A stretch of 64,000 nucleotides of DNA from Candidatus Omnitrophota bacterium (GTDB lineage: Bacteria > Omnitrophota > Gorgyraeia > Zapsychrales > JANLHA01), in the NCBI GenBank assembly GCA_022711395.1, contig JAKLFA010000003.1, positions 290,509 through 354,508 of the forward strand. Direction: 5' to 3'. The position numbers and the translations under genes were made by a program. Under the pieces are notes generated by a model. It ran no database searches. It saw only the letters and a program-made list of their open reading frames with translations, and was not told where the DNA came from. Position 1 is the first letter of the stretch. Each line of letters opens with the position of its first letter. Positions 3,623-27,700 of the stretch are shown piece after piece.

Positions 3623-3639
3623 TTTTTAAGGAGAGGGTT

Positions 3640-4623: not shown

Positions 4624-4734
4624 AGACCATATTGAAAAACTTGTTTCGATTGAACGGAAAAAATTGATTTTTCCCTGTAATCATTCTTGCTTCTCATGTA
4701 TACTTAAATTTGTAAATTACATAAGGAGGAGAGA

Positions 4735-10910: not shown

Positions 10911-11177
10911 TCAAAAACTATCCCAATCGATATTGTTGATCGTTTGATTAAGCTCATCAAGCCATTTGTGACAGAATTTGCAAATGTGCGCTTCTTGCAG
11001 GATTTTTTCACCGCAAAAAATGCAGGGTTTTTTGTCAATGCTGGGGTAAGGGACATCTAGAAGGTCATCAATGATGAATTGATTGCAGTGGTGGCAGCGG
11101 TTGGTGTGTTCGTCGAGATGTTCGTAACAGTAGGGACATTTGAGCATAACGGACTCCTGGAATGAGCGTATAATCAA
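10911..11177 (-). CDS. small double zinc-ribbon protein
   Basis: 88 aa with two CxxC...CxxC pairs (CPYC..CHHC; CIFC..CKFC). It is convergent with DUF192, and the two stop codons abut. Confidence 0.45.
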   Translation of the reverse strand: MIIRSFQESVMLKCPYCYEHLDEHTNRCHHCNQFIIDDLLDVPYPSIDKKPCIFCGEKILQEAHICKFCHKWLDELNQTINNIDWDSF

Positions 11178-11216: not shown

Positions 11217-11292
11217 CAAATGTTTTATTTTGGACATTTGTGTTTGTAAGTTCTTTTATGGCTATGATATAATTAAACGTTCAAATGTCCAA
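11217..11292. promoter_or_regulatory. promoter/operator region of the HTH-protein gene. Palindrome CAAATGT-N10-ACATTTG plus a direct CAAATGTCCA copy and an extended -10 (TGaTATAAT)
   Basis: caaatgt at 11217-23 and acatttg at 11234-40 are reverse complements. tggacatttg at 11231-40 and caaatgtcca at 11282-91 are reverse complements of each other. tgatataat at 11263-71. Confidence 0.4.
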
Positions 11293-11303
11293 AAAGGAAT
11301 CTT

Positions 11304-12986
11304 ATGGGAGTTGTTCACAAACTCACGCAGGAAATCATCGATTTTATTCTTTCGCAGAAGAAAGAAAGCCCTTCTCTGAGTTGCCGGTCCATGACTAGAC
11401 TGGTTTCTGAACGATTCGGAATGGACGTTTCTAAATCTTCTATTAATAACTTGTTGAAAGAAGAACGCTTAAGCAGCCCTGTTGGGCGCAGATCCGCATC
11501 CTTACGTACGAATAAAAAGCAGTTTAAAATTCCAGAAACAAAAAGAAGCCAGATCCAGCTTGATCTTGCGTCCAGCTTTGTTCAACAATCAGCCATTGAT
11601 GGGCCTGAAGAGAAAAACAAGGCAGAAAAGCAGGCGGATCTTTTAGATGGCGCCGGGGTTATTTTCTTAAGGGCTGCGGAGTGCGACTTGACCAGGGGGC
11701 CTGTTCTTGGGGAGATCCTCGATTGTGGCGATGAAGAGGAGAGGGCGTTTGTCAAGATTTTGAGCCTTCTTCATGGGTTTAATTTAGACTCTTTTGAAAA
11801 AATCCGTCAATATTCTGGAAAAGGGATGTGGAGTTTGGCGAATTTTCATCAAATGGGAGAAAGGTCCTTTGCGCAATGGCTTGAAAAAGGTAAAGACTGG
11901 AAACAGGCTTTGCTCAAATTTTCTGTAAAATCTCCAGCTTTTTTTACAAAAGTTTCATATTTTAAGCTTTATTTAGAAGATAAAAGCGTGTTATATTTGG
12001 ATGCGCAGGCTGGGGCTGTTTGGTCAGAAAATGTCCAATCTGGACTATATGCTTCACTAGCCCAATCAACAGAAGTTCTTGCCCGGCAAATATTAAGCAA
12101 TGTCCAATCTGTGGTTTTGTGTGGAATGTGTCCCAAAAAACAAGGACAAAAGACAACATCTGCTTTATATTTTCAAAATTTTATTGAATCTTTTGAAGGT
12201 ATACACGGAAAAAAAATCGTGGCGATCGGGTTAATTGATGAGCAAGGCCGAGAATTGGCCCAGTTCAAATCGGACTTGAATATCCGCAGAGAGTTTATTG
12301 CGGGGGTTTGGCCTTGGCAAATCGAATTTCAGGGGCTGATGGAGTCAAAGCGGGAAATCGCCACAGGAAAATTGGCGATGAGCGATTTAACATCGGAGAT
12401 CCATTTTAAAGAAATAAAAGCTTCAAATCTTTTTGGCGATGGGACCACGTTTAAAACGTTGCGCGGGTTTTTACTTTATGAGCCGTTTAATAATATTCCT
12501 TTTGCCGGGCTGCTTTCCAACCTTGATCCGCAGCAAGAAGCACAACGAGTCGTTGCGGCTTATGTAAGAAGGTGGCCGTATCTGACCCAGGGGGCTGTTT
12601 ATCAAAGAATATCGTCGGGAGAAGCAAAAACGTTGCTGGGATCGGACAAGGGGGGGGCGGATACGCTTTGGGAAGGGCTTACCGAAAAAGGAGAGGCCTT
12701 TTCGGCCTTTGATCTGACTCGCAGTGTGGGTGAAATGTTAAATCGATACGTCCAATGCCGGTTTTTTCCCGCACAGTATCATGAAGCGGATTTTTACACC
12801 ATGCACAATCGTTTTTACCGGTTATCGGGGTCTTTGGTGGAAAACAAGCAGGAATATTGTGTTGTTTTGGATGTCTCTTCGGAAAACTTGGCCTATAAAG
12901 AGGACCTTATTTTTGCTGTCCGGGCGGTTAACGAAGCATCGATACAGATGTCCCACCATAAGCCTATAAAGATATTATTAAAATAG
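11304..12986 (+). CDS. hypothetical protein with N-terminal helix-turn-helix; possible regulator
   Basis: 560 aa. The N-terminus (IIDFILSQKK...SMTRLVSERFGMDVSKSSINNLLKE) resembles HTH_23/28-type DNA-binding motifs. The rest is unrecognised. SD aaaaaggaa. Confidence 0.6.
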   Translation: MGVVHKLTQEIIDFILSQKKESPSLSCRSMTRLVSERFGMDVSKSSINNLLKEERLSSPVGRRSASLRTNKKQFKIPETKRSQIQLDLASSFVQQSAIDGPEEKNKAEKQADLLDGAGVIFLRAAECDLTRGPVLGEILDCGDEEERAFVKILSLLHGFNLDSFEKIRQYSGKGMWSLANFHQMGERSFAQWLEKGKDWKQALLKFSVKSPAFFTKVSYFKLYLEDKSVLYLDAQAGAVWSENVQSGLYASLAQSTEVLARQILSNVQSVVLCGMCPKKQGQKTTSALYFQNFIESFEGIHGKKIVAIGLIDEQGRELAQFKSDLNIRREFIAGVWPWQIEFQGLMESKREIATGKLAMSDLTSEIHFKEIKASNLFGDGTTFKTLRGFLLYEPFNNIPFAGLLSNLDPQQEAQRVVAAYVRRWPYLTQGAVYQRISSGEAKTLLGSDKGGADTLWEGLTEKGEAFSAFDLTRSVGEMLNRYVQCRFFPAQYHEADFYTMHNRFYRLSGSLVENKQEYCVVLDVSSENLAYKEDLIFAVRAVNEASIQMSHHKPIKILLK

Positions 12987-12998
12987 TAAGACTTCAGG

Positions 12999-13028
12999 TT
13001 GACATTAATTTTATATTCATGTTATACT
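12999..13028 (+). promoter_or_regulatory. sigma70-like promoter upstream of the pilin array (TTGACA-18-TATACT)
   Basis: ttgaca at 12999-13004 and tatact at 13023-28. The same hexamer pair and the same tgttatact context recur at 24482-24508. Confidence 0.45.
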
Positions 13029-13226
13029 CTGGATATCAACAATTGATCTTTGTCTAATTCTCTGCCTAAGGTAGAGATTTTTCCGCGTAATACTTTGAGA
13101 TACAAGTATTTGCGGAGGCCGTGAAGAGCGGCCATATATGCCCACTCGGTTTTCTGCTTTAAGTTGCAAAAAGCGGGCAACGGTTCACCTGTAACACATA
13201 AGAAACAGGCGCGGAGAGGCTTGAAC

Positions 13227-13367
13227 ATGGTTTCAAAAATGGGACAAAGTTTAGTTGAATATGCCATCGTCGTGTCCATTGTGGCGGCCGCCATGGTTGC
13301 CATGAGTACTTATGTGTTCCGTTCGGTGCAGGCAACGCAACAGGCGATCCATGAGGAATTCCGATAA
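13227..13367 (+). CDS. flp: Flp-family pilin 1
   Basis: Class-III prepilin signal KMG|QSLVEYAIVVSIVAAAMVAM, with Glu at +5 of the mature peptide. SD ggagagg lies 8 nt upstream. The longer 13164 start is less likely. Confidence 0.75.
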   Translation: MVSKMGQSLVEYAIVVSIVAAAMVAMSTYVFRSVQATQQAIHEEFR

Positions 13368-13401
13368 AACTAAAAGAAGCAAACTTTAAGGAGGATTTAG
13401 T

Positions 13402-13596
13402 ATGTTTAAAAATAAACTCTTGAAGCGCCGCGGGCAAAGCACATTGGAATATATCGTGTTGGTTACAGCGATCATTGTTGTTTTGCTCATCTTCTTGAAT
13501 CCGAGCACGGGTAGATTTTCTACCTATTTGAACAGGGCCCTGGATTCAGCAGGCCAAGGCATGAATTTAATGTCTTGCCGTGTTTTTGCCAAGTAA
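13402..13596 (+). CDS. flp: Flp-family pilin 2
   Basis: KRRG|QSTLEYIVLVTAIIVVLLIF. SD aaggagg. Confidence 0.75.
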   Translation: MFKNKLLKRRGQSTLEYIVLVTAIIVVLLIFLNPSTGRFSTYLNRALDSAGQGMNLMSCRVFAK

Positions 13597-13610
13597 ATTT
13601 GTTATGGCAC

Positions 13611-13633
13611 GGCACGCCTTGGGCGTGTTTTTG
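13611..13633 (+). terminator. putative intrinsic terminator after pilin 2
   Basis: cacgcc-ttg-ggcgtg hairpin followed by TTTTTGG. Short stem, moderate confidence. Confidence 0.35.
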
Positions 13634-13670
13634 GCTCATAATGAATCTAAACGTTTAAGGAGGAAAAAAC

Positions 13671-14048
13671 ATGTTACAAACAATTTTAAAAAATAAAAGA
13701 GCGCAGCAGACCGCAGAATATGCTCTTTTGATCTCTTTGGTCGTTGCTGCTGTGGTTGCGATGCAAACCTATGCACAGCGCGCTCTGCAGGGACGCATCC
13801 GTCAAGGTGCGATTTACATGAAAAATCAAACGGATACTAAGTTTGATCCCACCGGTGCAGCCAGCACAAAGCTACAGTATGCGCCGTATTATTTGACATC
13901 AGAGTACCAGGTTACGAAAGATGAAAATACGGATGACTTTTATTCTAAGTCAAAAGGGTTTGGGATCGATCAGATTTCAAACACGACCAGAGACGCTGGC
14001 GGGTTTAAGGAAGAAAACTTCAACACCGGCGATACGTCAAATTGGTAA
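13671..14048 (+). CDS. Flp-like pilin paralog 3 (extended, 125 aa)
   Basis: KRA|QQTAEYALLISLVVAAVVAM, then the family motif QRALQGRIRQGA. SD aaggagg. Confidence 0.65.
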   Translation: MLQTILKNKRAQQTAEYALLISLVVAAVVAMQTYAQRALQGRIRQGAIYMKNQTDTKFDPTGAASTKLQYAPYYLTSEYQVTKDENTDDFYSKSKGFGIDQISNTTRDAGGFKEENFNTGDTSNW

Positions 14049-14087
14049 TATTAACCAAAGAGCTGAATTTTTTAAGGAGGATAAATT

Positions 14088-14411
14088 ATGTTTAAACGAT
14101 TAAGAAAAAGACGCGCGCAAAGCACCTTGGAATACGCGGTGTTGATTGTTATCGTCATCGGCGCGCTTTTGACTATTCAAACATATGTCAAACGCGGTAT
14201 CCAAGGCCGTTTGCGGCAAGCATCTGACGATATCGGCGATCAGTTTGATGTTGATATCAATATGAGCCGCAAGACGAAATTCCATTCCAAGACCAACGAA
14301 ATTTACAATGTTGGGACTTTGAACAGCGTCTTGATCGACAAAGAAACAACAAACGTTGTTTATAACGTGATCTTTACTGGAAACATGGATTACACATATT
14401 GGGGCAAGTAA
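14088..14411 (+). CDS. Flp-like pilin paralog 4 (107 aa)
   Basis: KRRA|QSTLEYAVLIVIVIGALL, then KRGIQGRLRQASDDIGDQFD. SD aaggagg. Confidence 0.7.
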   Translation: MFKRLRKRRAQSTLEYAVLIVIVIGALLTIQTYVKRGIQGRLRQASDDIGDQFDVDINMSRKTKFHSKTNEIYNVGTLNSVLIDKETTNVVYNVIFTGNMDYTYWGK

Positions 14412-14438
14412 TCCCTATATGTTAATTTGCAGCAACAA

Positions 14439-14487
14439 CAGGCTTACTCGGTCAGCCCGAAATCGGGTCGGGTAAGCCTGTTTTTTT
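14439..14487 (+). terminator. strong intrinsic terminator inside the pilin array
   Basis: caggcttac ... gtaagcctg stem with a nested cccgaaatcggg hairpin, followed by TTTTTTT (14481-87). Confidence 0.7.
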
Positions 14488-14521
14488 CCACAGCATCCAA
14501 GGACGTCAGGGGGCTGGAGTC

Positions 14522-14911
14522 ATGTTCAGGCGCAGTAAAAAACAATATGCACAAGCCGGAGTCGACTACGTTCTCATCTTTTTTTTGGTGACAGCCGCCG
14601 TACTTGCCATGTCTACTTACGTTAACAGGGCCATCCATGGCCGCCATCTTATGGTTCGCGGGTTTATGTATGATCAGGTCAATGCTGTTTTTCGAGACAC
14701 CACATTAAATCTATACGGAAATTTTGTTCGGGGTTACGACCCGTATTATTTAAAAGTGGAAAATGAACGCCGGCAGGATTCTGTGATCGTGGACACGTTG
14801 CAGGCCGGGGTTTATGGTGGGACGGTCCCTATAGCGAAGAAAGAATATTTGAACTATGAAACAGGAGCGGACTCTTTTTCTAACCAGCTTCCGCCAAAGT
14901 TTGCCAATTAA
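14522..14911 (+). CDS. Flp-like pilin paralog 5 (129 aa)
   Basis: KQYA|QAGVDYVLIFFLVTAAVLAM, then NRAIHGRHL. Confidence 0.6.
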   Translation: MFRRSKKQYAQAGVDYVLIFFLVTAAVLAMSTYVNRAIHGRHLMVRGFMYDQVNAVFRDTTLNLYGNFVRGYDPYYLKVENERRQDSVIVDTLQAGVYGGTVPIAKKEYLNYETGADSFSNQLPPKFAN

Positions 14912-14915
14912 GCTT

Positions 14916-15263
14916 ATGGAATATAAAGAATTAAAATATAAAGAAAGACAGAAGGCGCAGACATTTCTGGAGTATGTTTTGTTGTTCAGCATAGTTGTCG
15001 GGATCGTAATAGCGCTTTCTCCTTTGATGAAACGAGGGATACAGGCGACGGTGAAATCTGTGGCGGACCAGATCGGGCTTCAACAGTGCGCTGAACAGAA
15101 GGGCGGAGAGGACGGGAAAATTGATTTGGTTGATACGCGGGCGGACGTCAGAAAGAAAAAAACACGCATCGAGAGAGTGGGGAATTTAATGTATCAATAT
15201 GATGACGCGACGATTGTGGCGTCGCAACAGCTCACAAATTCGGGGTTTACCAAAGAATATTGA
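14916..15263 (+). CDS. Flp-like pilin paralog 6
   Basis: Internal ATG after the previous stop. QKA|QTFLEYVLLFSIVVGIVIAL, then KRGIQATVKS. Confidence 0.6.
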   Translation: MEYKELKYKERQKAQTFLEYVLLFSIVVGIVIALSPLMKRGIQATVKSVADQIGLQQCAEQKGGEDGKIDLVDTRADVRKKKTRIERVGNLMYQYDDATIVASQQLTNSGFTKEY

Positions 15264-15274
15264 AGGAAAAGGCT

Positions 15275-15589
15275 ATGCTATCTCGAAAAGGACAGTCTGT
15301 GTTAGAGCAATCCATGATCTGGGTTATCATTATGGCGGCGATCCTGACCATCGGGGTTTATTTTAAGCGGGGCATACAAGGACGATGGAGGGCCGCTATC
15401 GACGATGTGGGCGATCAGTATGATCCGTATATGGCGGATACGAACCTTGTTTTTGGCGATCGCGCCAACGTGTTCACCAAGATCTTGACCATGGAAGACG
15501 GAAGCGGGTATTGGACGTTAAGGGAAGATTATACCAATTCTACAAGCACTAAAACGGGCTATGAATCTTTTGGTTCTTTTATACCGTAA
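15275..15589 (+). CDS. Flp-like pilin paralog 7
   Basis: RKG|QSVLEQSMIWVIIMAAILTIGV, then KRGIQGRWRAAIDDVGDQYD. SD aaggaaaagg. Confidence 0.6.
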   Translation: MLSRKGQSVLEQSMIWVIIMAAILTIGVYFKRGIQGRWRAAIDDVGDQYDPYMADTNLVFGDRANVFTKILTMEDGSGYWTLREDYTNSTSTKTGYESFGSFIP

Positions 15590-15594
15590 GGCGC

Positions 15595-17172
15595 ATGGCG
15601 AGCATTATGAAAAAAAGATCTTTTTTTAAAACCCGATGGTTATCCGCTCAATCAGCCGCGGAGTTGGCGGTCTTTGGGGCTGTTGTCATGTTCGTGATCG
15701 CCAGCCTTATTAAAGTGGGCCTGAGCATGTCCCAAAGAACGAATAATCAGCTGCGCGCGTTCCGTTTAGCACTCCTGGAATCTTATCGGACCTCGGAGGG
15801 GCGATACGGCGACATCATTGCAGCGCGTAATTCAGCCAGCATCATGATCCTGGAGGACCGGCTCACTGTTGAGCCTGGCAGCAAACAGGGCACGAGCAAT
15901 CGCTTGCCATTCTTGGCCCAGGGGTCAGGCACGTTCAGCAAGAACATGTTATACCCTAAGGACATGGGCGAAAAAAGCAATTTCCCTTTTTATGATGTAT
16001 TTATCAACGGCCAACGGTTCCCTCTTATTATGGCTGATTTTATTTATTTGAATATTTCCGTTGCCGGCCAGGTAAGGATCCAGCGGCGCAGGGAAGGCCA
16101 GGCCTTTGGGTCGTCAGATCTTAATCCGGTTGTTTTGCCGCCGTGCAATACGGTTACGCCGCGGGCATGCTGGAACACGGGCGGCGGATTTGCGGTCTTT
16201 ATGCGTAAAAATTATAATTATCCGGCAAATGAACATTGGTGTTCCGGGACAGGAGGAGGCTCTTGCCCGAATCTTCCAGCCAAATGGAGGTTCGACCTGG
16301 ACCTTGACGGGGATTTAACGGATGTTGGCAATGGATATGTTCCGGAAAATTATACGTTAGATGCAGCCAATTCCGTAGAATTAAGAGATGAATTCATGTG
16401 GCAGTGGATCGCTGTGGCGGCTTATCCGGTCCCGGAAGAAGGAACCCCCCCGACGGTTTCAGTAACGTTTAGAGATGAAGCGGGAAGTCCGTTCACGGTC
16501 AACGGCGTGCTCGCCCTTCAGGTTGGGGAACGGGCGGATGTGGATAGCGATTTTCAGGATGAGACCGTGCATACGTTATCTTATGCCGGGGCCGCGGCAG
16601 GCGTTTTGTTGCCGACATCTTTTTTGGTGATGGATTCTCAAGAAGGCGAGATCGATTTTTCCTGGGACAACAGAAGCGACGAGCAGCTTAAGGATTTGGT
16701 CGCCTGGTGGACGGCTCATTGCACGACCGTTCCTTTGCCGGCCGGTTGTTCCGCAACTCAGCCGGTCAAGCCGGAGGTCGGCCTGCAGAAAGACGTGCGG
16801 ATGTATTCTTTCACGAAAGACGGCACGTATTTGAGGTTAGAGGAAGGGAAGCTGGTCATCCCGTCAACGAATCAGGTTGTCCGCAGCACGACCAAAAGGG
16901 ACCATGTGGATATCATTGAAAGAATTTTTTTGTTAAGCAATGACACGGACCGTTTTTGCGATGAAAGCGGCAGCCGTCGCGTCTGGGGAGGATCGACCTG
17001 GGCTTATAATAATGGAGTTTTCGGGCTTCCCAATCCGGTCGAGGCCTGCAATAATTGTTTTTCGGCGGAGAACGTGCAGAATACCTGTTTTGATGAATCG
17101 AGCAAAATTTTATATATCCGCAGCCGCTTGGACGATGTGCGCGGCCGAAAGTGGCAGACGATCTACAAGTAG
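15595..17172 (+). CDS. large TadE/TadG-like pseudopilin (525 aa)
   Basis: N-terminus SA|QSAAELAVFGAVVMFVIASL (Glu at +5), followed by a long Cys-containing periplasmic domain. Confidence 0.6.
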   Translation: MASIMKKRSFFKTRWLSAQSAAELAVFGAVVMFVIASLIKVGLSMSQRTNNQLRAFRLALLESYRTSEGRYGDIIAARNSASIMILEDRLTVEPGSKQGTSNRLPFLAQGSGTFSKNMLYPKDMGEKSNFPFYDVFINGQRFPLIMADFIYLNISVAGQVRIQRRREGQAFGSSDLNPVVLPPCNTVTPRACWNTGGGFAVFMRKNYNYPANEHWCSGTGGGSCPNLPAKWRFDLDLDGDLTDVGNGYVPENYTLDAANSVELRDEFMWQWIAVAAYPVPEEGTPPTVSVTFRDEAGSPFTVNGVLALQVGERADVDSDFQDETVHTLSYAGAAAGVLLPTSFLVMDSQEGEIDFSWDNRSDEQLKDLVAWWTAHCTTVPLPAGCSATQPVKPEVGLQKDVRMYSFTKDGTYLRLEEGKLVIPSTNQVVRSTTKRDHVDIIERIFLLSNDTDRFCDESGSRRVWGGSTWAYNNGVFGLPNPVEACNNCFSAENVQNTCFDESSKILYIRSRLDDVRGRKWQTIYK

Positions 17173-17182
17173 GAAGACGGTT

Positions 17183-17440
17183 ATGAGATCAAAAAGAGCG
17201 CAGGTAACGCTTGAATTCACAATGGCGATGATGGCGACGATCTTGCTGTTTGCCGGAATGATACGGGTGTTTTTATGGATCGGAAAAAGCATGATCGAAC
17301 AACGCAAGGCCCACGAGAGGGTTTTGATGACCGATTATAGCTCGGCTGGCGTGGCGGGCCCGCTGTATCAGCTTAAAGAGGATTTTTATACGCCGGCAAC
17401 GTTTGATGCTGCGGTCAGCAGCGATCTGTTTAAACATTAA
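17183..17440 (+). CDS. TadE-like pseudopilin (86 aa)
   Basis: KRA|QVTLEFTMAMMATILLFAGM. SD aggaag. Confidence 0.6.
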   Translation: MRSKRAQVTLEFTMAMMATILLFAGMIRVFLWIGKSMIEQRKAHERVLMTDYSSAGVAGPLYQLKEDFYTPATFDAAVSSDLFKH

Positions 17441-17464
17441 AGGACCGACCATAAAGGAATAAGC

Positions 17465-20400
17465 GTGATTCGATTCTTGCGAGAAACAATGTTCCATTCC
17501 ATCCGGAAAGCGTCTTTCAGACAAGGAGCTTCATCACTCCGTTCACAGTCAGGGCAGATCGGGATCATCCTGATCCTGCTGGCCGCTTTTGGGTTGTTGT
17601 TCTATGCGATCACGTTGAATTTTAACCGGGCCTCTGACTTAAAGACCCGGACCCTGATGGCGGCCGAAGCGTCTTCCGCGCTCACGGCGTCTTATTTGGC
17701 CGGAACGGCGGAAAAATTATCCCAGGAACATTTAAAAGGAGAAGCGGGATATTGCGATTCGTCAAGCTGGTTGGAGGCGGTATTTAAGATCATCCTGCTG
17801 TCGATCGTCATTGTTATCGCCATCATCATTAATATTATTCCAGGAGTTGGTTCGCTTGTCAGCGCGCTTTTGTGGGCAGTCGTTGTCGGCGCTATTTTGG
17901 CCATTGTGTTTACGACGATTTCCATTATTTTGCAGATCACCGTGGTTCAGCCCGGGATCACGTCCATGTGGAACGAAATGATGGCCAAGACCTTTAAGGA
18001 GATCGAGGACCAGGTCATTGAGCAGGGCATCCAGATCGCTATTCAGAAACTGGTCGATGACCCGATCGAGCTTCCTGACACACTGGATTTTGACAATGAC
18101 GGTGTTTATGTTGTTGTGAATGGCGGTGAGATCCAGGATGATGAAATTGTGGATTCATACGCGCGGTTCGCGCATTACAATACCCGCCGGCTGCAGGGGG
18201 TCGTGGGAACCCCGTCTTATTATGTGGATGAATTTTTGGCCCGCCTGGAAGACCTTGTTTATTTAATTCCGGGAGGGCCTTCGCCTACGGCTCCGGATTT
18301 GTGGGGGTTTGTGGATGGGCAGACCTTTATACCACCGATCGGAACATGCACGAACGATGCGTCTGTCTGCAATCCGTGCTGTTTTCCCGTGGCCGCGGCT
18401 TGTTGCGGCAGCTGTTCTGGCGATACACGCTGCACGGCCGGACTGCCTCCAGCGGATGTCCCGCCCTGTTGCGCTGTTGCGGCCTGCACGACAGAGGCGG
18501 ATCAGGCGACATGCGCGACGTCAAGGCCATCGTATTGCGGGGCGGAATATCCAGCCAAATGTTATCAGCGGAGCTTTTTGTATGAAGATGGTGACGCGAA
18601 TGACACTACGATCGAGGCATCGCGGGGATTACCGTTCATTTTTGATCCGTTCTATGAAGGGGCTGTTAACAATACAATGCACGCTGCTGGAGGCGCTGTT
18701 CGGATGATCTCATTCAGGGAATGGGTCGGCAGGGATGATGTGTCTGATGCGTATTATGTTGATCCCGAACCCAACGATTCAGTCAGGTGGCATTCGCTGC
18801 ACGCGGCGGCGATCGCGGACAACCGTCAAAAGATCGAAGACGGAGTGGCGACGGCAGCGTTAGCGTTTACGAACAGATTCGTTCTTTCTTTGCAGGACCG
18901 CTTCCGGGCCCAGGACGCCAGTGGGTTTTATATTTCACGGGGTGACGATCAGGTCGGTGTTTTTCCGCTATTCTATCGAATGAGGGACCAATTGGAATTT
19001 CCGACTTCTTTTCCGGGTGCGCATCATTTAGGGTGTTTGTGGTGGAATATTGCGGACCAGGCGTGCAATTACCGCACACTGTTCCGTCCTGTGGACCAGT
19101 TCACTCTTCCGTATTTGATCACCGCGGTCATTCAATACGGCGGACAAACGCTCACGGACAGTCTGGGCACGCCGCTTCGTTACGCGGATTATGCGGGAGA
19201 GCACGCCTTCATCGATATGGGATTTTATAACGCGCCCGATCGGGTGCGAAAAGGAGCCATCAACAGGCTGTTTGCCGCTGATGCTGTCTGTGCTGAAGTT
19301 GCGGCCAGGCCGACAGTGACCATGGCTGCTGTATCAGCATCGCAGAACGCCCGGACAAATATTAATTTTCCCGGGATTAAACAAGGAGCGGATTTCTATT
19401 GTTCGGCCAATTATCCGTATGATGTTGGGTGTTTAAAGCACGGAACGGGTGGATGCACCAGAACGCTTTGGTTTGAACGGATCAACGATGCGACAGGGGC
19501 CAAGGAAATGTATAGCCAGGTGTTTCCGGTGGACTGCGCTTGCGGAGAAGCCGGGTCAGCGCCTGCCGATAAGTGGCCGGATGATTTTCTGGACGCGTTC
19601 CATAAAAAGATCACGGAACTTAAGCTTTTGACCGCGGAATTGAGCGGCCTGAAGATGCGCGGGCTTTTGGTCTCGACATTTTCTGATTGGTATTTAAAGA
19701 TTGCGGACTGGATCGAGCCGGCCTATAACAAGGCCGCCTGTACCGCTAACAGCGCAAGCGTCGCGTGCAAAGAAACGGTGACGCGTAAGGAGCGCTGGGG
19801 CTACCTGTGGTCATTTCGAGAGCATTTTAGAGAGATCGCGCTTATTTTAAATGACTGGTTGAATGACCGGGACGAAGCAGGCGCGACGATGTCTTATCAG
19901 GCAGCCAATTGTTTTGATGCGTGGTGTTTACCCAACCCGGGCTGCACGATGCTGAGCGCCGAAGAGCGGCTGGGATATGATAATAACGGCGACAATCTTT
20001 ATAATGCCAATGATAACGGGCTTACAGCTGTTATAAAATGTATGGATTGGGCGTCAACCGCTGTGACGAACGACCTTACGTATTCTGCAGCGGTCCCGCC
20101 TCCGCGAAACAACAATCCGCAGCTTTTAAAGGACGCCAGCGGCAATAATTATGTGGGGATCAAAGGGAAATACCAGGCGTGTCTCGAGAACTGCGGCACG
20201 CAATATTGCGATGATCTTCCGCGGCCGTTCGTTCCATCGTATGAGGTCGATAAATCGATCACTGCCGGAGCGGACTGGAGGATATTATCAACGCCAACGA
20301 TCCCCGCGGCGGCCGGGGACGCTGTTTATTTGGGCACGTATAAAAAGTGCCTGCGTTCATTGACGGTCGCTCAGTGCACGGCCAACACGGCCGCGATCGA

Positions 20401-21889: not shown

Positions 21890-21930
21890 AAAATTAAAAG
21901 ACCGGCCTTGTCATTACAGGCGGAGTTGTT

Positions 21931-22308
21931 ATGATGATATGGAGAAAAAAAAGAAGTCGGCGCGGCACGACCGCCATTGAATACGCGGCTTTGGTCACGA
22001 TGCTGCTGTTCGCGTTTTGGATCGGGCTGCGGGGGTATATCCAGCGGGGCATGCAGGGCCGCTGGAAAGCCGCAGGCGACACTTTCGGACAGGGCAAGCA
22101 GTATGAGCCGTTGGGAACAAACGCCGTCGGCAGGACCAGTGAATGTTTTTATTCGGACCTGATCAATCCATCGACCGGGGTCCGCGTTCGTGAATGGGTC
22201 GACCTGACGTGTTTTGAAACAAACTGCAATTGCACGCTGGAAAGCGACGCCAGCACATATTCTACCGTCTGTATACAATGTTTGAGGAACTGTGACTGCG
22301 TGTTTTAA
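21931..22308 (+). CDS. Flp-like pilin paralog 8 with an 8-Cys C-terminal module
   Basis: RRG|TTAIEYAALVTMLLFAFWIGL, then QRGMQGRWKAAGDTFGQGKQYE, then C..C.NCNC...C.QC..NCDC. Confidence 0.6.
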   Translation: MMIWRKKRSRRGTTAIEYAALVTMLLFAFWIGLRGYIQRGMQGRWKAAGDTFGQGKQYEPLGTNAVGRTSECFYSDLINPSTGVRVREWVDLTCFETNCNCTLESDASTYSTVCIQCLRNCDCVF

Positions 22309-22341
22309 GGCAGGGTTCGACTTCAGGGGGAAAGTCAAGTC

Positions 22342-23199
22342 ATGTTCGTTCTCGCGTTATTTTTCTTTTTTACAACCTGCGTGATCGTTGGGTATTGGAT
22401 CCTGCCGTCAGCGTATCGTCAAACAGTCGCTTTAAATCAAAAAAGGGCCCATCAGCTTTCTTCTAAACTGGAGAGGGTCATTCCCCGGGCCCAGATCCGT
22501 CAAGTGGTCCAGATGTATCTGCTCGCCCCGCTTCTTCTGGGCGGGCTTTTCTTTGTTTTCTTTCCGCAAAAAATGCAGGTTTACGGTGCCGTGGCGGGGG
22601 TCGTGCTCGGTTTTATTTTTCCGTCGATCTACACGCGATTTTTGATCGCGTCCAATAAAAAGAAATTTTCTGATCAGCTGATCGATGTGCTGATGATCAT
22701 GTCCAGCTCGTTCCGCGGGGGGTTAAGCTTGATGCAGTCGATGGAGGCGGTCACGGAGGAGATGAGCGACCCCGCCAATCAGGAGTTCTCCACTGTCCTG
22801 GGGGAAAATAAAATGGGCGTTTCGTTGGAAGAATCGCTGGAACATTTATACAATCGTCAACCGTCGTCGTCGTTGCAGCAGATGATCACGGCGATCCTTC
22901 TGGCCAGAGAGACCGGCGGTAACCTGCCGGCCATTTTTCAGCGTATCGTTGAGGTCATCCGCCAGCGGAAGCGGATCCAGGGGCAGATCGACACTCTGAC
23001 CCTTCAGGGAAAGATCCAGGGCGTGGTCATGGCGGCGTTGCCGATCGTCTTTTTCGGGTGGGTTTCAGGGATCAATCCGGACCATTTTAAGATCATGTAT
23101 GACACGCCGGTTGGAAGGAACCTGCTGGTCGCCTCGTTTCTGCTCGAAGTGGTCGGGGCGTATATGATATGGCAGATCAGTTCATTGAAGGATTTTTAA
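22342..23199 (+). CDS. tadB: Flp pilus assembly inner-membrane protein TadB (T2SSF domain)
   Basis: 285 aa. TM helices and a GspF-like domain (LIDVLMIMSSSFRGGLSLMQSMEAV...LQQMITAILLARETGGNL). Confidence 0.8.
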   Translation: MFVLALFFFFTTCVIVGYWILPSAYRQTVALNQKRAHQLSSKLERVIPRAQIRQVVQMYLLAPLLLGGLFFVFFPQKMQVYGAVAGVVLGFIFPSIYTRFLIASNKKKFSDQLIDVLMIMSSSFRGGLSLMQSMEAVTEEMSDPANQEFSTVLGENKMGVSLEESLEHLYNRQPSSSLQQMITAILLARETGGNLPAIFQRIVEVIRQRKRIQGQIDTLTLQGKIQGVVMAALPIVFFGWVSGINPDHFKIMYDTPVGRNLLVASFLLEVVGAYMIWQISSLKDF

Positions 23200-23217
23200 G
23201 AATCAAAAAGGAGCGGT

Positions 23218-24099
23218 ATGTTTTTTATCGCGGTCTTATTATGGTTTTTGTGCGCCTTTAGTTTTGTCCTGGGGCTGTTCCCCTTGGAAATGGAGGCCCG
23301 TCCGACATTGCAGGCCTTCGGTTATGAACTGCGTCCGACGAAGAAAAGAAAAAATCCTCTGGCGATCGTCCGGTCGGTTGCGATGTTCAACAGACCCTTC
23401 GTCGGTTCCGGGCAGTTGCGCGAAAAGATCCTGCGCGAACTTTCGATGGCGCATGTCAATTTAACGCCTGAGGAATTCTGGCTGTTCAAAGAGATCTCGA
23501 TCGTCGCGATGCTTATCTTTACGTATCCTTTGGTCGAGCCTGATTATATGGTCATCTGGCTTCTTTTGTGCGTGTTTTTTGGATACATGCTTCCGGAATA
23601 CTGGCTGCGCGGAAAGATCAAAAAGGTCAAGGGGATCATCATGAAAGAACTTCCCGACGCTGTTGATCTTTTGGGGCTGTGCGTCAACGCGGGGCTGGAT
23701 TTTATGCTGGCGCTGAAGTGGGTCGTTGAAAAGTCTCCGCCTTCGGTCATGGTCAGCGAGCTTAATATTTTGCTTCAGGAGATCAACGTTGGGAAGACCC
23801 GACGAGATGCTTTAAAGGCCCTTTCAGCCAAATATGATCTTGCGGACCTTGCGACCTTTACGCGGACCCTGATCCAGGCCGACAAGATGGGGACATCGGT
23901 CTCAGAAGCCTTGACCATCCTTTCAGAAGACATGCGTCTTGCCCGGTATCGACGGGGTGAGCAGCTTGCCATGAAGGCGCCTATGAAGCTTCTGGTGCCT
24001 CTTTTGTTCTTTATTTTCCCGGTTGTTGGTATCCTGGTCGGCGGACCGATCTTTATTCAGTTCATGACAGAAAACCCCATGAGCCGCATGACAGGATAG
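23218..24099 (+). CDS. tadC: Flp pilus assembly inner-membrane protein TadC (T2SSF domain)
   Basis: 293 aa. GspF-like domain (LPDAVDLLGLCVNAGLDFMLALKWV...TLIQADKMGTSVSEAL). Confidence 0.8.
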   Translation: MFFIAVLLWFLCAFSFVLGLFPLEMEARPTLQAFGYELRPTKKRKNPLAIVRSVAMFNRPFVGSGQLREKILRELSMAHVNLTPEEFWLFKEISIVAMLIFTYPLVEPDYMVIWLLLCVFFGYMLPEYWLRGKIKKVKGIIMKELPDAVDLLGLCVNAGLDFMLALKWVVEKSPPSVMVSELNILLQEINVGKTRRDALKALSAKYDLADLATFTRTLIQADKMGTSVSEALTILSEDMRLARYRRGEQLAMKAPMKLLVPLLFFIFPVVGILVGGPIFIQFMTENPMSRMTG

Positions 24100-24278
24100 T
24101 CTTTGAAGGATTTTCGGTGTTTTTGTATAGGCTGTTTCTGTTCTCCAAAATGACCCCGCTCAAATCAATGGCAGATGTCTCTATTTTTTGCTTGGCGAAA
24201 AATGGACAGCCTTTTTCTACCTATTTTTTGCTTAAGAGATATCAAATTTATAGTAAATTGCATGGCGTTTTTTTGTTT

Positions 24279-24338
24279 AATGTCCAGGCAGATTTTTAAT
24301 GTCCAATCAGAAAAGTTAAAAAAATAAAATGTCCAGTC
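24279..24338. promoter_or_regulatory. three direct AATGTCCA repeats (at 24279, 24298, 24328) in the AT-rich region upstream of the giant gene
   Basis: ttaatgtccagg, ttaatgtccaat, aaaatgtccagt. Further copies lie in the opposite orientation at 24491-97, 24570-76, 24659-65 and 24695-701. Confidence 0.5.
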
Positions 24339-24481
24339 AAAAGCATAAAGTTTCCGACGGGAAAAGGCATTATTATATATAAGAAACAATTTATTTTCGT
24401 TCGAGAAAATAGTTTTCAAAAAACGCCTAACTTGTTCTAAATAAAGCATTTCATTGATAAAAAAATTTTTGAAAAAATTTG

Positions 24482-24508
24482 TTGACACTATGGACAGGTG
24501 TTATACTT
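24482..24508 (+). promoter_or_regulatory. sigma70-like promoter (TTGACA-15-TATACT) with an overlapping inverted repeat ggtgtt...aacacc
   Basis: ttgaca at 24482-87 and tatact at 24503-08. The palindrome ggtgtt-N8-aacacc spans the -10. A GGAGG motif follows at about 24522. Confidence 0.45.
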
Positions 24509-24593
24509 GAAACACCTAGCCCGGAGGAAAGTGAGTTAAATTTAAGAAACCGCTTTACCTGAAAACATTTTGGACAATTCTTTAATTCTTCAA

Positions 24594-24622
24594 TGACCGC
24601 CTTTCGGCGGTTTTCTTGTTTA
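24594..24622 (+). terminator. terminator/attenuator-like hairpin in the leader of the giant gene
   Basis: accgcc-tttc-ggcggt followed by TTTCTTGTTT. It lies about 90 nt downstream of the promoter and about 85 nt upstream of the likely start codon. Confidence 0.4.
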
Positions 24623-24705
24623 TACAGAACCTTCCGGCTAGCAAACTAACGTACAATCTGGACATAAAAAAGACCCTTTTTATGGACGACAGACTGGACA
24701 TAAAT

Positions 24706-27700
24706 ATGCAGGCCATTCGTGTCTCTGATGCTCAAAGCTCTGAGAACGAGGGAGTCTCTATATCTAATAATGTCCAGAATACATATGGCACGGAGCCTGA
24801 AAAAGCCTTCAAAAGCCGTTTTAAAGGCTGGCTTCGTTTAGTTGCCGCGATCGTTGTTTTTGTCTTTCTTCCGGAGCAGATCAGCTGGGCCATGAACTAC
24901 AATCCGGCGGTCCTCTGGAGCGCTCAGCCGATCTCCATGACCGGCATGCCGATCGCCTCGCAGGCACCGGCGCTGGAGCTTCAGCTGCCGCAGCGGGAAG
25001 CGGCAGAAATGCTGGCGACCAATGTCCAGAGCCTTTTAAGCCGCGCCGCTATGGAAGGCAACCGCAATCTGGATATCCAGATCGCCTCTCCGAACCAAAA
25101 AGAATTCCGTGACATTGACGGTTTGCGTATTTCGGCCAAAACGTCTTTAAGCCCCGAAAAGATCCAGGAAGTCGCTCAATGGCTTCGCAAGCCTGGCATC
25201 CATCCGTTGAACTGCGGCGTTTTCGCCCTTCATGATTTCTTGAAATTAAGCAAAATGCCGATCTCCCTGGAACAGGCGGCTCTTTCGACCCTGTCGGTCG
25301 ACCTTCTTACAGACATTGTCAAGCCCGGAGACCCGACGCTTAAAACGTCCCTTTACGCGATCGATAAGGTCATCTCGCTCTATCAGCTCGATCACGCGGT
25401 CATTAAACTGGAACCGCAAGATATCCTAAAATTGAATGTTCCGTTCATCGCCAATTTCGGACAAGAACACTTTGTGACCGTCACGGCGATCGATGACAAA
25501 GGTGTCCACGTTCAGGACACCGGCGTTGAGCGGATCATGTCTCAGGAAGACTTCTTAAAAGACCTGAGCGGATATGTCTTGATCTTAAAGAAGAATATCC
25601 CGATCTCTGTTTCTTACCAAAATGTTGATGATGTCGAAAAAGCTTTCGTCTGGGGCGACCGCTGGGTCGATCAGTCGGATGAATTGCCCGGTCTTTTGGG
25701 CGATGTCGGCGAAGCCTGGGCGCGCGCGGGGACGGACGTTGCTATCACGGTCGTTATATCGATCGTCACCTGGGGTTTCGGGACATGGTTAAACAGCCTT
25801 GCTGAGGCTGGAAAGATCGCCGGCATGCTGGCCAAGCTCGCCAGCGAGCTGGCCAAAATGGGCACGATCATTGCGGGCATCGCCGCGATCGGTATCGGTG
25901 AACTTGTTAATACCATTAATCAGATCGCGATCATGAACGGCTGGTGGGACGAGGATGTGGGCTTCGTCATGGGCATTGTCCTTTCTACGGCGCTGTCCGT
26001 CGGCTGCGGTATGCTGACGTCGGGCTTTGCCGGAGCTCTGGATTCTTCGGTCAAGGCCGGGACGAACGGGTTGACTGGCGCGGCGCTGGGCGGGGCTGCG
26101 TTCCGGGGATTGGGGACCGGGATCGGCAACGTGCCGGTGGTTTTTGCCCAACGAATGGCGCAGTCGCTGATCGTTGCTTTTCCAAAGGCTTATCTTGCTA
26201 GAGAATTAGATAAAATTATAGACATTGATGATCCTATTTTAAAACAGGCCGCGGTCGGCTTTCTTTCAAGCCTGGGAACACAGATCGGCCTGATGGGACT
26301 TTCGTTTAGTTTAGACCAGGTTGGTTTAGATTCTGTTAATTCATTCTTAGATCTAAAGGCTCCTGAATCTTTGGGAGAATTTTTAAAAGAAGCGGGTCTT
26401 TCGATTGGCCGAGGACTTGTTGGGAATGCGGCAAGCATCGGCTTGCGGTATTTATTTTTAGAAATCGATGATGAAACATTTGCGGCCGACACTCTTGTGT
26501 CCCAGGCTATTGGTCAGGTGGGACAAACCTTTGGAAACCTTTTATTTGATATTGTCAGTTCAGGATCCTTGCCGCAAATTTTAAGAGGGGATGTTAAGAA
26601 AGGAAATTTTGTAGGTGATGACGAGGTTGTTTCTGCCGGACTGTTTGCGCGAGATTCAAACGGCGATTTACAAGAAGCTTATAAGGATGATAAAAACAAT
26701 TATTACATTTTAGGAGAGAACGACCAGAAACAGCTTGTAGGAATAGATAAAATTGTTACCCGCGGGATCGGAGATTCGGGAGTTGTTGAAAGACCTGGAG
26801 ATCAGCTCGAAAGCTTCAGAGGCATAACAATAGATGGTTCTAATTATGCTATACGCAAGAGAGACGGACAGCTGGTCGATGCCAACGACCAAAGGAGCCG
26901 GTATTTTATATTAGATAAACAAGGCCGGCCGGCTTTTCTTAATGTTGACAGCGACGGAAAGGTCACGATCCCTACAGAAAGTTTTGCGCAACTTAAAGCA
27001 AAAGGATTAGATCCCGAAGGAAACTATTCTCTTAAGGAAGACGCTTTAGAAGGGGGATTGCCGCAGCTTCATTTGATGCAGAGGCAGGCCCTATCCTCCA
27101 GATTGCTGGCGGAAGCTGTGCAGGGATTGGTAGGCGTAGCGATCGCCTTTGGAATGGATCGGCTGGAAGATGCGGTGATTGATGAAGATGATGAAGGGCA
27201 AAAAGATAAATACCAGACCCTTGGTTTACGTTTGGTCGGATTTTTGGGAACATTGGTGCTGGCAGAAGGAGCTTCCGCGCTAGGCCGTTCCAGCGGCAGC
27301 GCAGACGGCGCCAGTTTGGAAGGCGGGAGCGTTTTGAGTGCTTTCGGGGACACTTTTTATAGAGGGGGAGCGACCTTTGCTTTACAGCTTGGCAATAATT
27401 TCTTAAGGGCAAACGGCACCATGCCGAGCGGATGGGAGTATGGAAAAGGAAGCTTTGATTCTATTGAACAAATGGTCCGTTTTTATGAGCAGGCCGGCGA
27501 GCGTGCGGGTTGGGGAATGGATTCTATTTCTAAAATCCGCGGTCTGCGTAAACAGCTTGATGAAAACGAAGATCTGACGGATGAACAAAAACATTATTAT
27601 TTCTTTATGGGAGTTTCGAACATAACCAAAAAGGCGAAAGATGAATGGGCCATTGATCAGGTCAATACCAACCTTGCCGGAGGTTTTGTCAACAATGACA

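Follow-up and report, generated by a model that had tools for sequence, protein, structure and literature searches.

A conserved sequence motif marks the promoter of a transposase-like HTH protein gene and the start of a giant gene in an Omnitrophota secretion locus

Autoregulation by transposases or their inhibitors at terminal inverted repeats is known from IS1 (InsA), IS911 (OrfA) and IS50/Tn5 (Tnp and Inh). Transcription factors have also been derived from transposases, as represented by the Pax paired domain and Tc1/mariner-type HTH, the plant proteins FHY3/FAR1 and the bacterial TldR repressors, which are derived from nuclease-dead TnpB. A further type of related system consists of multi-operator looping repressors with intragenic auxiliary operators, such as LacI (O1/O2/O3), GalR (OE/OI) and DeoR. 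In Omnitrophota, a T2SS/Tad-like locus is conserved upstream of giant genes, the 'archaeovorins' (West-Roberts et al. 2023, bioRxiv 10.1101/2023.11.21.568195; Seymour et al. 2023, PMC10066038). Term searches in these two papers gave no mention of a regulator, promoter or cis motif, and the gene for a 560-aa protein considered here is left unannotated in both; no description of a Tn5/IS4-derived cellular regulator was found in papers on Omnitrophota giant genes.

The window, i.e., the whole 64-kb stretch of DNA analysed here, contains such a Tad/T2SS-like locus with the same neighbourhood as in those papers, running from rotamase via rcpC, secretin, ATPase and class-III-signal pilins to two T2SSF genes and a giant gene of the "archaeovorin" type, which codes for an N-terminal C39 domain. 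The HTH gene coding for the 560-aa protein is present in a single copy and at the same position in 17 of 17 contexts seen. The original prediction had proposed an operator set shared by the control regions of these two genes. Every copy listed there is present in the sequence, two of them displaced by one position (TGGACA starts at 24571 instead of 24570, and AATGTCCA at 24769 instead of 24768). The 8-mer does recur, but a count of ten or more was overstated: the two control regions together have only six exact copies of AATGTCCA (11231, 11284, 24279, 24298, 24328 and 24769), and the remaining ones have only the 6–7-nt core TGGACA(T) in common. Further copies were detected at 12030 and 12099 (both AATGTCCAATCTG, inside the HTH gene) and at 25021, together with a weak core at 24203. 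The full motif form is AATGTCCAATCTG, corresponding to an asymmetric sequence of about 13–14 bp, wAATGTCCA(A/T)TCTG.

In the 64-kb window, AATGTCCA occurs 12 times vs. 2.33 expected copies, a number reached in none of 100 shuffles. To compare the density of the cores with that expected for random intergenic DNA, this AT-rich DNA was simulated with first-order Markov models. The non-coding DNA (1,906 bases in 12 intergenic regions) contains nine TGTCCA/TGGACA cores, all of them confined to two of the regions, and their numbers there are far above the Markov expectation: the 126 bp upstream of the HTH gene contain two cores vs. 0.06 expected (P = 0.0014), and the 582 bp upstream of the giant gene contain seven vs. 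0.17 expected (P < 5e-5). TGGACA is the top enriched hexamer in the control-region DNA (22-fold). Comparison with other genomes, using one locus per genome and about 64 kb of this genome, showed that the control regions drifted in their flanks among diverged relatives, yet the sites persist at their positions. The promoter of the pilin operon, the third of the locus, is conserved but carries no motif, and therefore the sites are specific; moreover, none were found at any of the other ~20 genes per locus. Positional conservation in diverged control regions and absence from the pilin promoter speak for the proposed operator set, and judged by sequence, the motif is a real, evolutionarily conserved control signal marking the HTH-gene promoter and the giant-gene start. 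The features around the HTH gene are as follows.

10911–11177, minus strand: divergent gene for a double-zinc-ribbon protein of 78–88 aa, with a 126-bp control region in common with the HTH gene
11228–11240, minus strand: left arm of a 13-bp inverted repeat, TTTTGGACATTTG (minus strand reads CAAATGTCCAAAA), just upstream of the predicted −35
11244–11273, plus strand: predicted HTH-gene promoter with −35 TTGTAA, 18-nt spacer and extended −10 TGATATAAT (10 of 12 matches, TG present)
11282–11294, plus strand: right arm of the inverted repeat, CAAATGTCCAAAA, between the −10 and the Shine-Dalgarno sequence AGGA (11295–11298), a putative autorepression operator
11304–12986, plus strand: gene of the 560-aa candidate regulator with N-terminal HTH, AT-hook-like arm and Tn5/IS4-transposase-like core
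12030–12042, plus strand: intragenic site 1, AATGTCCAATCTG, codons N-V-Q-S; also in L014, L016 and L017
12099–12111, plus strand: intragenic site 2, AATGTCCAATCTG, codons N266-V267-Q268-S

The two copies predicted at 11231–11240 and 11282–11291 are real and belong to a perfect 13-bp inverted repeat, whose arms TTTTGGACATTTG and CAAATGTCCAAAA are separated by 41 bp and surround the extended −10 (TG at 11265–11266, TATAAT at 11268–11273). This pair is kept in L014 (65% protein identity), L016 (43%), L013 (36%), L017 (33%) and L012/L030 (30%), the left arm having its counterparts, counted from the ATG, at −113 in L013 and between −69 and −79 in L014, L016, L017 and L012/L030; HTH-gene orthologues also keep the extended −10 (TGnTATAMT). 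In 14 of the 15 distinct orthologues (23–65% protein identity), a plus-oriented TGTCCA precedes the ATG by at most 50 nt, which corresponds to P ~5e-23 vs. background density if the orthologues are treated as independent, which overstates their independence because they are related by descent. As far as sequence comparison can tell, this placement of a motif next to the start of the gene is what comparative genomics classically shows for autoregulated transcription factors. The distant family member L041 carries three sites, one of them within the −35/−10 spacer, and short-form orthologues contain a tight palindrome, AATGTCCAnnnTGGACATT, in which the arms are invariant and the spacer varies. 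The promoter-proximal site is placed more constantly relative to the start codon (about −15 to −26) than relative to the −10 (5–62 nt); a simple operator would not usually behave in this way, and a function at the mRNA level would be compatible with it, too. Inside the gene, L012/L030 retain the DNA motif of site 1 (TTGTCCATTCTG) in a different frame, read as L-S-I-L. Site 2 is under nucleotide-level selection within the coding sequence: its codons AAT GTC CAA are identical in five genomes while synonymous sites elsewhere are scrambled, and of 74 degenerate invariant codon columns, only seven show no difference between five orthologues, three of these seven being AAT GTC CAA; across the family, the conservation of V267 and Q268 reaches only ~35%.

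The family of the 560-aa protein is large (~900 clusters) and uncharacterised. The protein starts with a paired/Tc3-like HTH (residues ~9–53), followed by an AT-hook-like arm, LSSPVGRR. HTH_32 and HTH_Tnp_Tc3_2 matches were obtained for 10–11 of 15 family members (best E 4e-7), and the HTH matches the Pax6 paired domain with a probability of 1.0 and 30% identity. The recognition residues R28, S43, K44, S45, N48, G61 and R62 are 90–100% invariant among 101 members, and this near-invariant recognition region parallels the invariant DNA core. L024, the sole orthologue with a degraded HTH (R28Q, N48H, arm lost), also lacks the motif. The only significant fold match of the whole protein was Tn5 transposase, with probabilities of 0.94–0.97 for two independent models (one with a pLDDT of 89) and low TM-scores of ~0.2. 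Analysis by hhalign placed the family sequence LLTN...YxxRW on the Tn5 YREK region without the catalytic glutamate, in a weak profile-sequence alignment (E 0.16); both this glutamate and the second aspartate are missing family-wide, leaving the DDE triad incomplete. In these models, the protein looks like a domesticated Tn5-like transposase and not like an ordinary transcription factor, which the original prediction had overlooked, while its choice of the adjacent HTH protein as a candidate regulator of itself and the giant gene is supported by the 14 of 15 own-gene placements, the invariant HTH and the joint loss in L024. Both parts of the original prediction, the operator set and the regulator, thus withstood all of the computational tests applied, with support from comparative genomics. 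The giant-gene region contains the following features.

24198–24210, minus strand: weak core-only copy, TGGACA at 24203–24208 with poor flanks, overlapping a terminator-like hairpin after tadC
24279–24340, plus strand: array of three direct repeats, (T)AATGTCCA at 24279, 24298 and 24328, ~160–225 nt upstream of the giant-gene −10
24482–24507, plus strand: predicted giant-gene promoter with extended −10 TGTTATACT (24499–24507), TTGACA (24482–24487) only 14 nt away and TGGACA (24491–24496) in the spacer
24566–24578, minus strand: leader site tttTGGACAatt, about +56 from the predicted transcription start; identical in L014
24654–24666, minus strand: leader site atcTGGACAtaaa, 23 nt before ATG 24682
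24682–64000, plus strand: 5' part of the giant gene (>13,100 codons, continuing past the window end) with Peptidase_C39 near the N-terminus; presumed regulated target
24690–24702, minus strand: translation-start site CAGACTGGACATA, codons R-L-D-I (AGA ATG/TTG GAC ATA in orthologues)
24769–24781, plus strand: first-codons site AAT GTC CAG (N-V-Q) at +89, forming an inverted pair with the +13 site
25021–25033, plus strand: further in-frame copy AATGTCCAG at +341

Orthologues of the giant gene code for 32,545 aa (L010), 24,214 aa (L011) and 25,316 aa (L043). The site at 24695, which had been thought to overlap the start codon, is real, but ATG 24682 opens the reading frame, which also includes the previously assumed ATG 24706, and the site therefore covers codons 5–7 (CTG GAC ATA), which read ATG/TTG GAC ATA in the orthologues. 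A minus-oriented core is found at exactly +13 (once +16) from the annotated ATG in eight of ten genomes and a plus-oriented core at +65 to +89 in six of ten; altogether, sites upstream of or over the giant-gene start are present in nine of ten genomes at a density of 7.6 times background. L014, L016, L017 and L020 have orthologous arrays of three or four sites between −350 and −456 relative to the ATG, with diverged flanks; site clusters also occur in L022, L023, L043 and L044, and the extended −10 (TGnTATAYT) is kept in L014, L016, L017, L020, L022, L023 and L028. A minus-oriented site at −18 to −25 is shared by L014, L023, L043 and L044 and absent in L016, where the counterpart of the leader site at 24566–24578 has the opposite orientation (aatTGTCCAatc). 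The core at 24491 is not conserved among the orthologues, L014 having TTGACA there; no conserved counterpart of the weak copy at 24203 was seen in the orthologues, and it is possibly a chance occurrence. Likewise, no site was found at the position equivalent to the 25021 copy in L014 and L016. L028, a short form, has the palindrome at its own HTH gene, but no TGTCCA upstream of the giant gene. The giant-gene sites lie mostly within predicted transcribed DNA.

The motif is probably the operator of a locus-specific regulator, namely the domesticated, catalytically dead IS4/Tn5-type 560-aa protein, which would repress its own promoter and control the giant gene by multi-site binding; we infer the protein as the binder, its multimerisation and repression as the effect. 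The N-terminal paired/Tc3-like HTH and the AT-hook-like arm would have been kept from the transposase ancestor, and each protomer would read a single site. The protomers may join via the transposase-like core, as transposases pair two ends, and may thereby connect sites that are arrayed or form inverted pairs. The regulator would act negatively on its own gene from the pair around the promoter, whose downstream arm is placed between the −10 and the ribosome-binding site, and from the two auxiliary intragenic sites. On the giant gene, the three-site upstream array, the sites of the ~170-nt leader and the +13/+89 inverted pair straddling the translation start could be covered by a nucleoprotein complex, which would most likely keep the gene silent by looping or as a roadblock until a signal, perhaps prey contact, relieves the silencing.

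It is unlikely that the motif is a true operator of another binder, either an unlinked global regulator or the divergent double-zinc-ribbon protein, with the HTH gene being a target instead of the regulator. The zinc-ribbon gene does use the same control region, and the right arm could provide its −35 (TGGACA, 16 nt, TATCAT on the minus strand); in addition, the scope of one locus per genome would allow for a larger regulon and, with it, another, global protein as the binder. However, the motif is also found upstream of the HTH gene where the zinc-ribbon gene is absent (L012/L030, L028, L029, L035, L037 and L038), the other genes of each locus are free of sites, the invariant recognition helix of the HTH protein parallels the invariant core, and the HTH decay in L024 coincides with the loss of the motif.

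A role in RNA is less probable still: translation initiation would then be controlled by AAUGUCCA and UGGACAUU located in 5' UTRs and initial codons, either through base pairing with each other or through recognition by an RNA-binding factor. The constant distance of the sites to start codons and ribosome-binding sites, the many sites in transcribed regions and the mutual complementarity of the two orientations would agree with this; furthermore, the short-form palindrome could form an 8-bp hairpin 4 nt before the AUG, and the giant-gene leader is structured (z = −3.3), the 24659 site pairing with the start-codon region in the predicted fold. Nevertheless, the predicted transcripts include neither the left arm nor the upstream arrays, a site is on the other strand in one orthologue, both orientations keep the extended asymmetric flank ATCTG, and an Rfam search gave no match. 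The arms are invariant without compensatory changes while the spacers vary, which points to a constraint on sequence, not on structure.

The Tn5-like fold, the transposase-type HTH and the 13-bp inverted repeats around the promoter could also point to transposon-end relics or live recombination sites at which an active transposase or recombinase cuts, inverts or excises DNA, e.g., as a phase-variable promoter switch. We regard this as very improbable in view of an HTH gene that is single-copy and strictly syntenic in 17 contexts (23–65% identity), shows no flanking repeat in a search at its 3' end and codes for a protein family devoid of the catalytic glutamate and second aspartate; moreover, the arms are only 41 bp apart, and all six independent assemblies of the species share the same orientation of the region. 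Chance recurrence or a compositional or repeat artefact has a negligible probability: the regions are indeed AT-rich (28–33% GC) and the copies at 24491, 24203 and 25021 are not conserved, but the Markov and shuffle controls and the positional conservation in more than ten diverged genomes rule it out.

Taken as an operator of the 560-aa protein, the motif would be the first concrete lead on the switching of giant predation-associated genes in Omnitrophota. The proposed system resembles the autoregulation of insertion sequences in its transposase-type HTH, a short asymmetric site (~13–19 bp) in inverted copies, the Tn5-like core and one copy overlapping the promoter of the protein's own gene, here with proposed negative autoregulation. 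It differs in that the HTH gene is not mobile (single-copy, syntenic, no 3' repeat, incomplete DDE triad), that both arms lie upstream of the gene, and that a second, cellular target, the giant gene, also carries sites. Like the transposase-derived transcription factors, it would represent a DNA-recognition module of a mobile element reused as a sequence-specific regulator after loss of catalysis, but here the whole transposase body is kept and not the HTH alone, the bacterial phylum is Omnitrophota, and recognition is not RNA-guided. The 560-aa protein has a fold unrelated to those of LacI, GalR and DeoR, shows no recognisable effector domain and would read an asymmetric half-site in direct arrays and inverted pairs; in common with these looping repressors, dispersed copies of one site surround the promoter with tens to hundreds of bp between pairs, and some lie inside coding sequences, constraining codons.

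The conserved T2SS-like locus with its giant "archaeovorin"-type gene is known for Omnitrophota (West-Roberts 2023 preprint; Seymour 2023), and the window carries it in the gene order listed here. The same sequence was found on contig DAOTBU010000002.1 of the MAG GCA_035452745.1, ENA assemblies and a JGI metagenome contain it too, and the source records of the TadC homologues name Candidatus Omnitrophota.

Genes of the window in their order
First genes of the window: gyrA, a tRNA, CN-hydrolase, Ldh, rotamase and RcpC, in this order
6637-8352: secretin
8394-10556: ParA-T2SSE fusion ATPase, followed by DUF192
10911-11177, minus strand: small double-zinc-ribbon gene
11304-12986: HTH gene (560 aa), followed by small pilin-like genes with class III signals
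Between the pilin-like genes and the T2SSF pair: genes for proteins of 525 and 1474 aa
Up to 24099 (end of the second gene): two T2SSF (TadB/TadC) genes
From ATG 24682 beyond the end of the window: giant ORF of >13,100 codons, with a Peptidase_C39 domain close to the N-terminus

In the secretion ATPase, a ParA/MinD-like (CpaE-type) part and a T2SSE (CpaF-type) part are fused in one protein of 720 aa, an arrangement kept in all relatives examined. Within the giant ORF, the GC content rises in a step near 42 kb, from about 0.46 to about 0.55, and remains at the higher level, suggesting that the gene is of mosaic or modular origin.

The original prediction listed copies of a short motif at the promoter of the HTH gene and in the control region of the giant gene, and proposed that the adjacent HTH protein autoregulates and controls the giant gene. 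Every listed copy exists, with two coordinates off by one base. The exact 8-mer AATGTCCA occurs 12 times in the window against 2.33 expected copies, but only six of these exact copies lie in the two control regions, where ten or more had been claimed; the other listed copies share just the core TGGACA(T). Two further copies at 12030 and 12099, both within the HTH gene, had been overlooked. Nine cores were counted in 1,906 non-coding bases, all of them within two of the twelve intergenic regions of the window and none in the other ten, and TGGACA was the top enriched hexamer in the two control regions. Because first-order Markov simulations of equally AT-rich DNA gave expected numbers of 0.06 and 0.17 cores for these two regions (P=0.0014 and P<5e-5, respectively), the motif density is clearly higher than in random DNA of the same AT content, the comparison on which the original prediction had staked its case. 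Exact copies of AATGTCCA were also present at 484 and 1764 (gyrA) and at 51661 deep in the giant gene; we do not regard these as sites, as no conservation was seen and their number fits the approximately two chance copies expected.

For analyzing the conservation of the motif, orthologous loci of relatives (designated by L numbers) were gathered from genome and metagenome collections via the HTH protein, via TadC and via the mid-locus 525-aa protein, the latter two also serving as anchors for loci extending to the giant gene. Upstream of the HTH gene, the order of TGGACAT, extended -10 box, AAATGTCCAA and ribosome-binding site is kept in L014, L016, L017, L013 and L012/L030, whose HTH proteins are 65% to 30% identical to that of the window and whose remaining intergenic DNA has diverged. 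The paired motif around the extended -10 box is present in at least six genomes, and in 14 of the 15 distinct HTH orthologues (pairwise identity at most 65%) the ATG has a plus-oriented TGTCCA within 50 nt. With a background of 4.2e-4 per nt and strand, this corresponds to P ~5e-23 if the orthologues are taken as independent, a figure which overstates their independence because they are related by descent. The distant family member of L041 is preceded by three sites, one of them within the -35/-10 spacer, and a subgroup of short-form proteins (344–361 aa) shows the tight palindrome AATGTCCAnnnTGGACATT, with invariant arms and a variable spacer, between the extended -10 box and the ATG of their own genes. 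In the short-form loci L028 (6250-6285), L035, L037 and L038, AATGTCCAnnnTGGACATT directly follows the extended -10 box; the proteins of this subgroup carry SKSSVHDVLK as their recognition helix and TPRGRKPK as an AT-hook-like arm.

Among 74 degenerate, amino-acid-invariant codon columns common to five orthologues, just seven are codon-identical, and three of these are the consecutive AAT GTC CAA of site 12099. Across the wider family, conservation of the encoded V267 and Q268 is only about 35%. The counterpart of intragenic site 12030 in L012/L030 is preserved as DNA in a different reading frame, and L016 carries one of the giant-gene leader sites on the opposite strand. Judged by these patterns, the sites appear to act as DNA and not just as codons, and conservation of the NVQ copies at the protein level alone is ruled out by the codon test, the family-wide variability and the frame-shifted copy.

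At the giant gene, sites are present in nine of ten genomes and occupy the following conserved positions, which do not include site 24491 of the window. From 63 sites of nine genomes, we obtained the asymmetric consensus wAATGTCCA(A/T)TCTG.

Conserved sites at the giant gene (positions relative to its start)
Around -350 to -456, or immediately behind tadC in loci with a long spacer: array of three to four sites
Near -20: one site
Exactly +13 (once +16), minus-oriented: one site, eight genomes
+65 to +89, plus-oriented: one site, six genomes

The region upstream of the giant gene in the short-form locus L028 (15105-15195) contains no TGTCCA; what it carries is a one-base variant, CAGAATGGAAATT...AATTTCCATTCTG, which reads TTTCCA where TGTCCA would be expected and is present in both inverted and direct copies. 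This variant may represent an altered-specificity or low-affinity operator. Another relative, L022, contains nine copies of the palindrome GGGAC(A/T)GTCCC (at 3728-4250, 17850, 18547 and 19006), several of which have a TGGACAT site 10-14 nt away, together with a minus-strand ORF at about 17900-18440, whose 180-aa product has an HUH-like motif (HVHFIV) and resembles a REP-associated tyrosine transposase. From its sequence, this looks like a REP/RAYT system inserted upstream of the giant gene.

For the giant-gene leader itself (24512-24710, about 170 nt), a structure is predicted, with an MFE of -47.1 kcal/mol (z = -3.3). Its closing helix pairs CCCGGAGG (24521-28) with CCUUCCGG (around 24631-38) and is conserved in L014 and L016; it further contains an internal terminator-like hairpin with a U-tract (24595-24612) and a second hairpin in which the start codon is paired with the region of site 24659. 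As modelled, the structure could serve as an attenuator or translational switch. A known riboswitch, leader or sRNA was rejected, since no Rfam family matched meaningfully in 24100-24800 at E values up to 5 and the sole above-threshold match in the whole window was a tRNA.

The candidate regulator belongs to a large family. A word-indexed search had returned 15 homologues, suggesting a tiny family, which was refuted by an exhaustive profile search yielding 903 clusters, of which 610, mostly full-length, had E<=1e-30. Residues 9-53 form a three-helix HTH, which matches the paired domains of Pax6 and Pax5 with Foldseek probabilities of 0.98-1.0. The Pfam models HTH_32 and HTH_Tnp_Tc3_2 were matched by 10-11 of 15 members (best E 4.4e-7), and the window protein stays under the Pfam cut-off with 18-19 bits; bar one marginal match, only these transposase-type HTH models were found in the family. 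DDE_Tnp_1_4 matched one member marginally (E 0.017). In an alignment of 101 sequences, the HTH and the adjoining LSSPVGRR arm are nearly invariant, with R28, S43, K44, S45, N48, G61 and R62 conserved at 90-100%. For two AlphaFold models (pLDDT 75 and 89), Tn5 transposase was the sole significant whole-protein fold match, with a probability of 0.94-0.98 and E values of 5e-5 to 2e-4 over about 450 aligned columns, at a TM score of only about 0.2 and an rmsd of 15-17 Å. A profile search against PDB sequences gave no match for the family, and hhalign against the Tn5 sequence, which was checked against PDB, was weak (E 0.16), its single local alignment placing LLTN...Y420xxR423W424 on Y319xxR322W of the YREK region of Tn5. 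The family shows neither an intact D-D-E triad nor the Y-(2)-R-(3)-E-(6)-K signature: the position equivalent to the catalytic glutamate E326 of Tn5 is L or F and is acidic in 1% of cases, the second aspartate, expected behind strand 270-272, has no acidic counterpart there, and only D233 (98%) and D226 (86%) are conserved. The 560-aa protein is thus probably a domesticated, inactive IS4/Tn5-like transposase. An active insertion sequence was rejected in view of synteny, copy number, the absent 3' repeat and the lost catalytic residues: the gene occurs once per locus in 17 of 17 syntenic contexts, with DUF192 (with or without the zinc-ribbon gene) on one side and pilin genes on the other, and no motif follows its stop codon. 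Larger members also occur, such as the 978-aa protein of L023 (3724-6657) in which about 400 aa are inserted between HTH and transposase-like core, and further members of 750-970 aa in a representative search of the family.

Three features expected of an autoregulated transcription factor were found at this locus, namely a DNA-binding domain, the motif at its own promoter across orthologues, and the motif at a target together with its absence from neighbouring promoters. The pilin-operon promoter (12999-13028) is conserved and free of TGTCCA. It is a strong promoter (TTGACA, 18 nt, TGTTATACT; 11 of 12 matches), and its leader of about 200 nt (region 12999-13230) opens with a conserved terminator-like hairpin (13059-13077) and a T-tract, the same layout being present in L007 and L009. 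An autoregulated, locus-specific regulator with a multi-site operator set is the best-supported reading of these sequences, in line with the original prediction; which protein binds, that it multimerises and in which sense it regulates are what we infer from them. Because one site of the HTH gene lies between the -10 box and the ribosome-binding site, its partner lies upstream of the -35 box and there are intragenic auxiliary sites, we argue that the protein would repress its own gene with bridging between sites. The layout at the giant gene, with an array upstream, sites in the leader and a pair at +13/+89, suggests that a repressive looped or roadblock complex would form.

That the motif mimics a -35 box, given the resemblance of TGGACA to TTGACA, was rejected, since its distance to the -10 box is wrong: the HTH promoter has a spacing of 31 nt, and at the giant promoter only 5 nt separate the core 24491-96 from TATACT (24502). 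On the minus strand (11264-11291), the right arm is usable as a -35 box (TGGACA, 16 nt, TATCAT) of a promoter that reads divergently into the zinc-ribbon gene. In that case, the two promoters would face and overlap each other, and binding of one protein could control both genes. This use of the right arm fails in L012 and L013.

Among the alternatives, binding of the motif by another protein is unlikely. In the single case of L024, the HTH orthologue has R28Q and N48H exchanges, a lost arm and repeat insertions, and no motif is present upstream; this joint loss points in the direction expected if the HTH protein is the binder. The gene appears decayed (3547-4990), with the peptide GARHAVPL encoded three times by inserted repeats, and similar short palindromic repeats fill the intergenic DNA nearby. 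A role of the motif at the RNA level would agree with the constant distance to the start codons, but it is rather improbable, given that sites have flipped strand or lie outside transcripts and that covariation is lacking. Recombination at the sites is a still fainter prospect: inverted repeats do flank the HTH-gene promoter, but an invertible promoter of the fimS type was rejected, as the arms are just 41 bp apart, the locus contains no tyrosine or serine recombinase, and six of six assemblies show one orientation. Recurrence of the motif by chance is negligible in view of the simulated expectations.

Giant genes of 25,000-40,000+ codons beside a Tad/T2SS-like machine are a signature of predatory or parasitic Omnitrophota, and the literature we found on them is silent on the control of so costly a gene and on the transposase ancestry of the family; a term search of the West-Roberts 2023 preprint and Seymour 2023 returned no mention of a regulator, promoter or motif. 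The organisms are uncultured; a 13-bp operator and its candidate regulator are amenable to tests in vitro or in E. coli that need no culture of them, and offer a search key for the regulon in any Omnitrophota genome. Both together provide a way to ask if prey contact switches on giant-gene expression; attached cells showed a three-fold increase of giant-ORF peptides, according to the proteomics as summarised in PMC10066038. More speculatively, and with somewhat less than even confidence, we propose that the whole family of about 900 clusters of dead Tn5/IS4-like transposases is a domesticated, dedicated master switch of the Omnitrophota Tad-like secretion and giant-gene predation locus, which would silence or license a 40-100-kb gene via transposon-end-like 13-bp sites and synaptic-complex-like bridging. 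If true, this would give a first handle on how giant genes are regulated and would be a bacterial example of a full-length transposase that became a cellular transcription factor. The logic of a transcription factor and its operators is classical, and the regulator family is uncharacterised; with its large size, Tn5-like body and lost active site, it would represent a clear bacterial case of transposase-to-regulator domestication.
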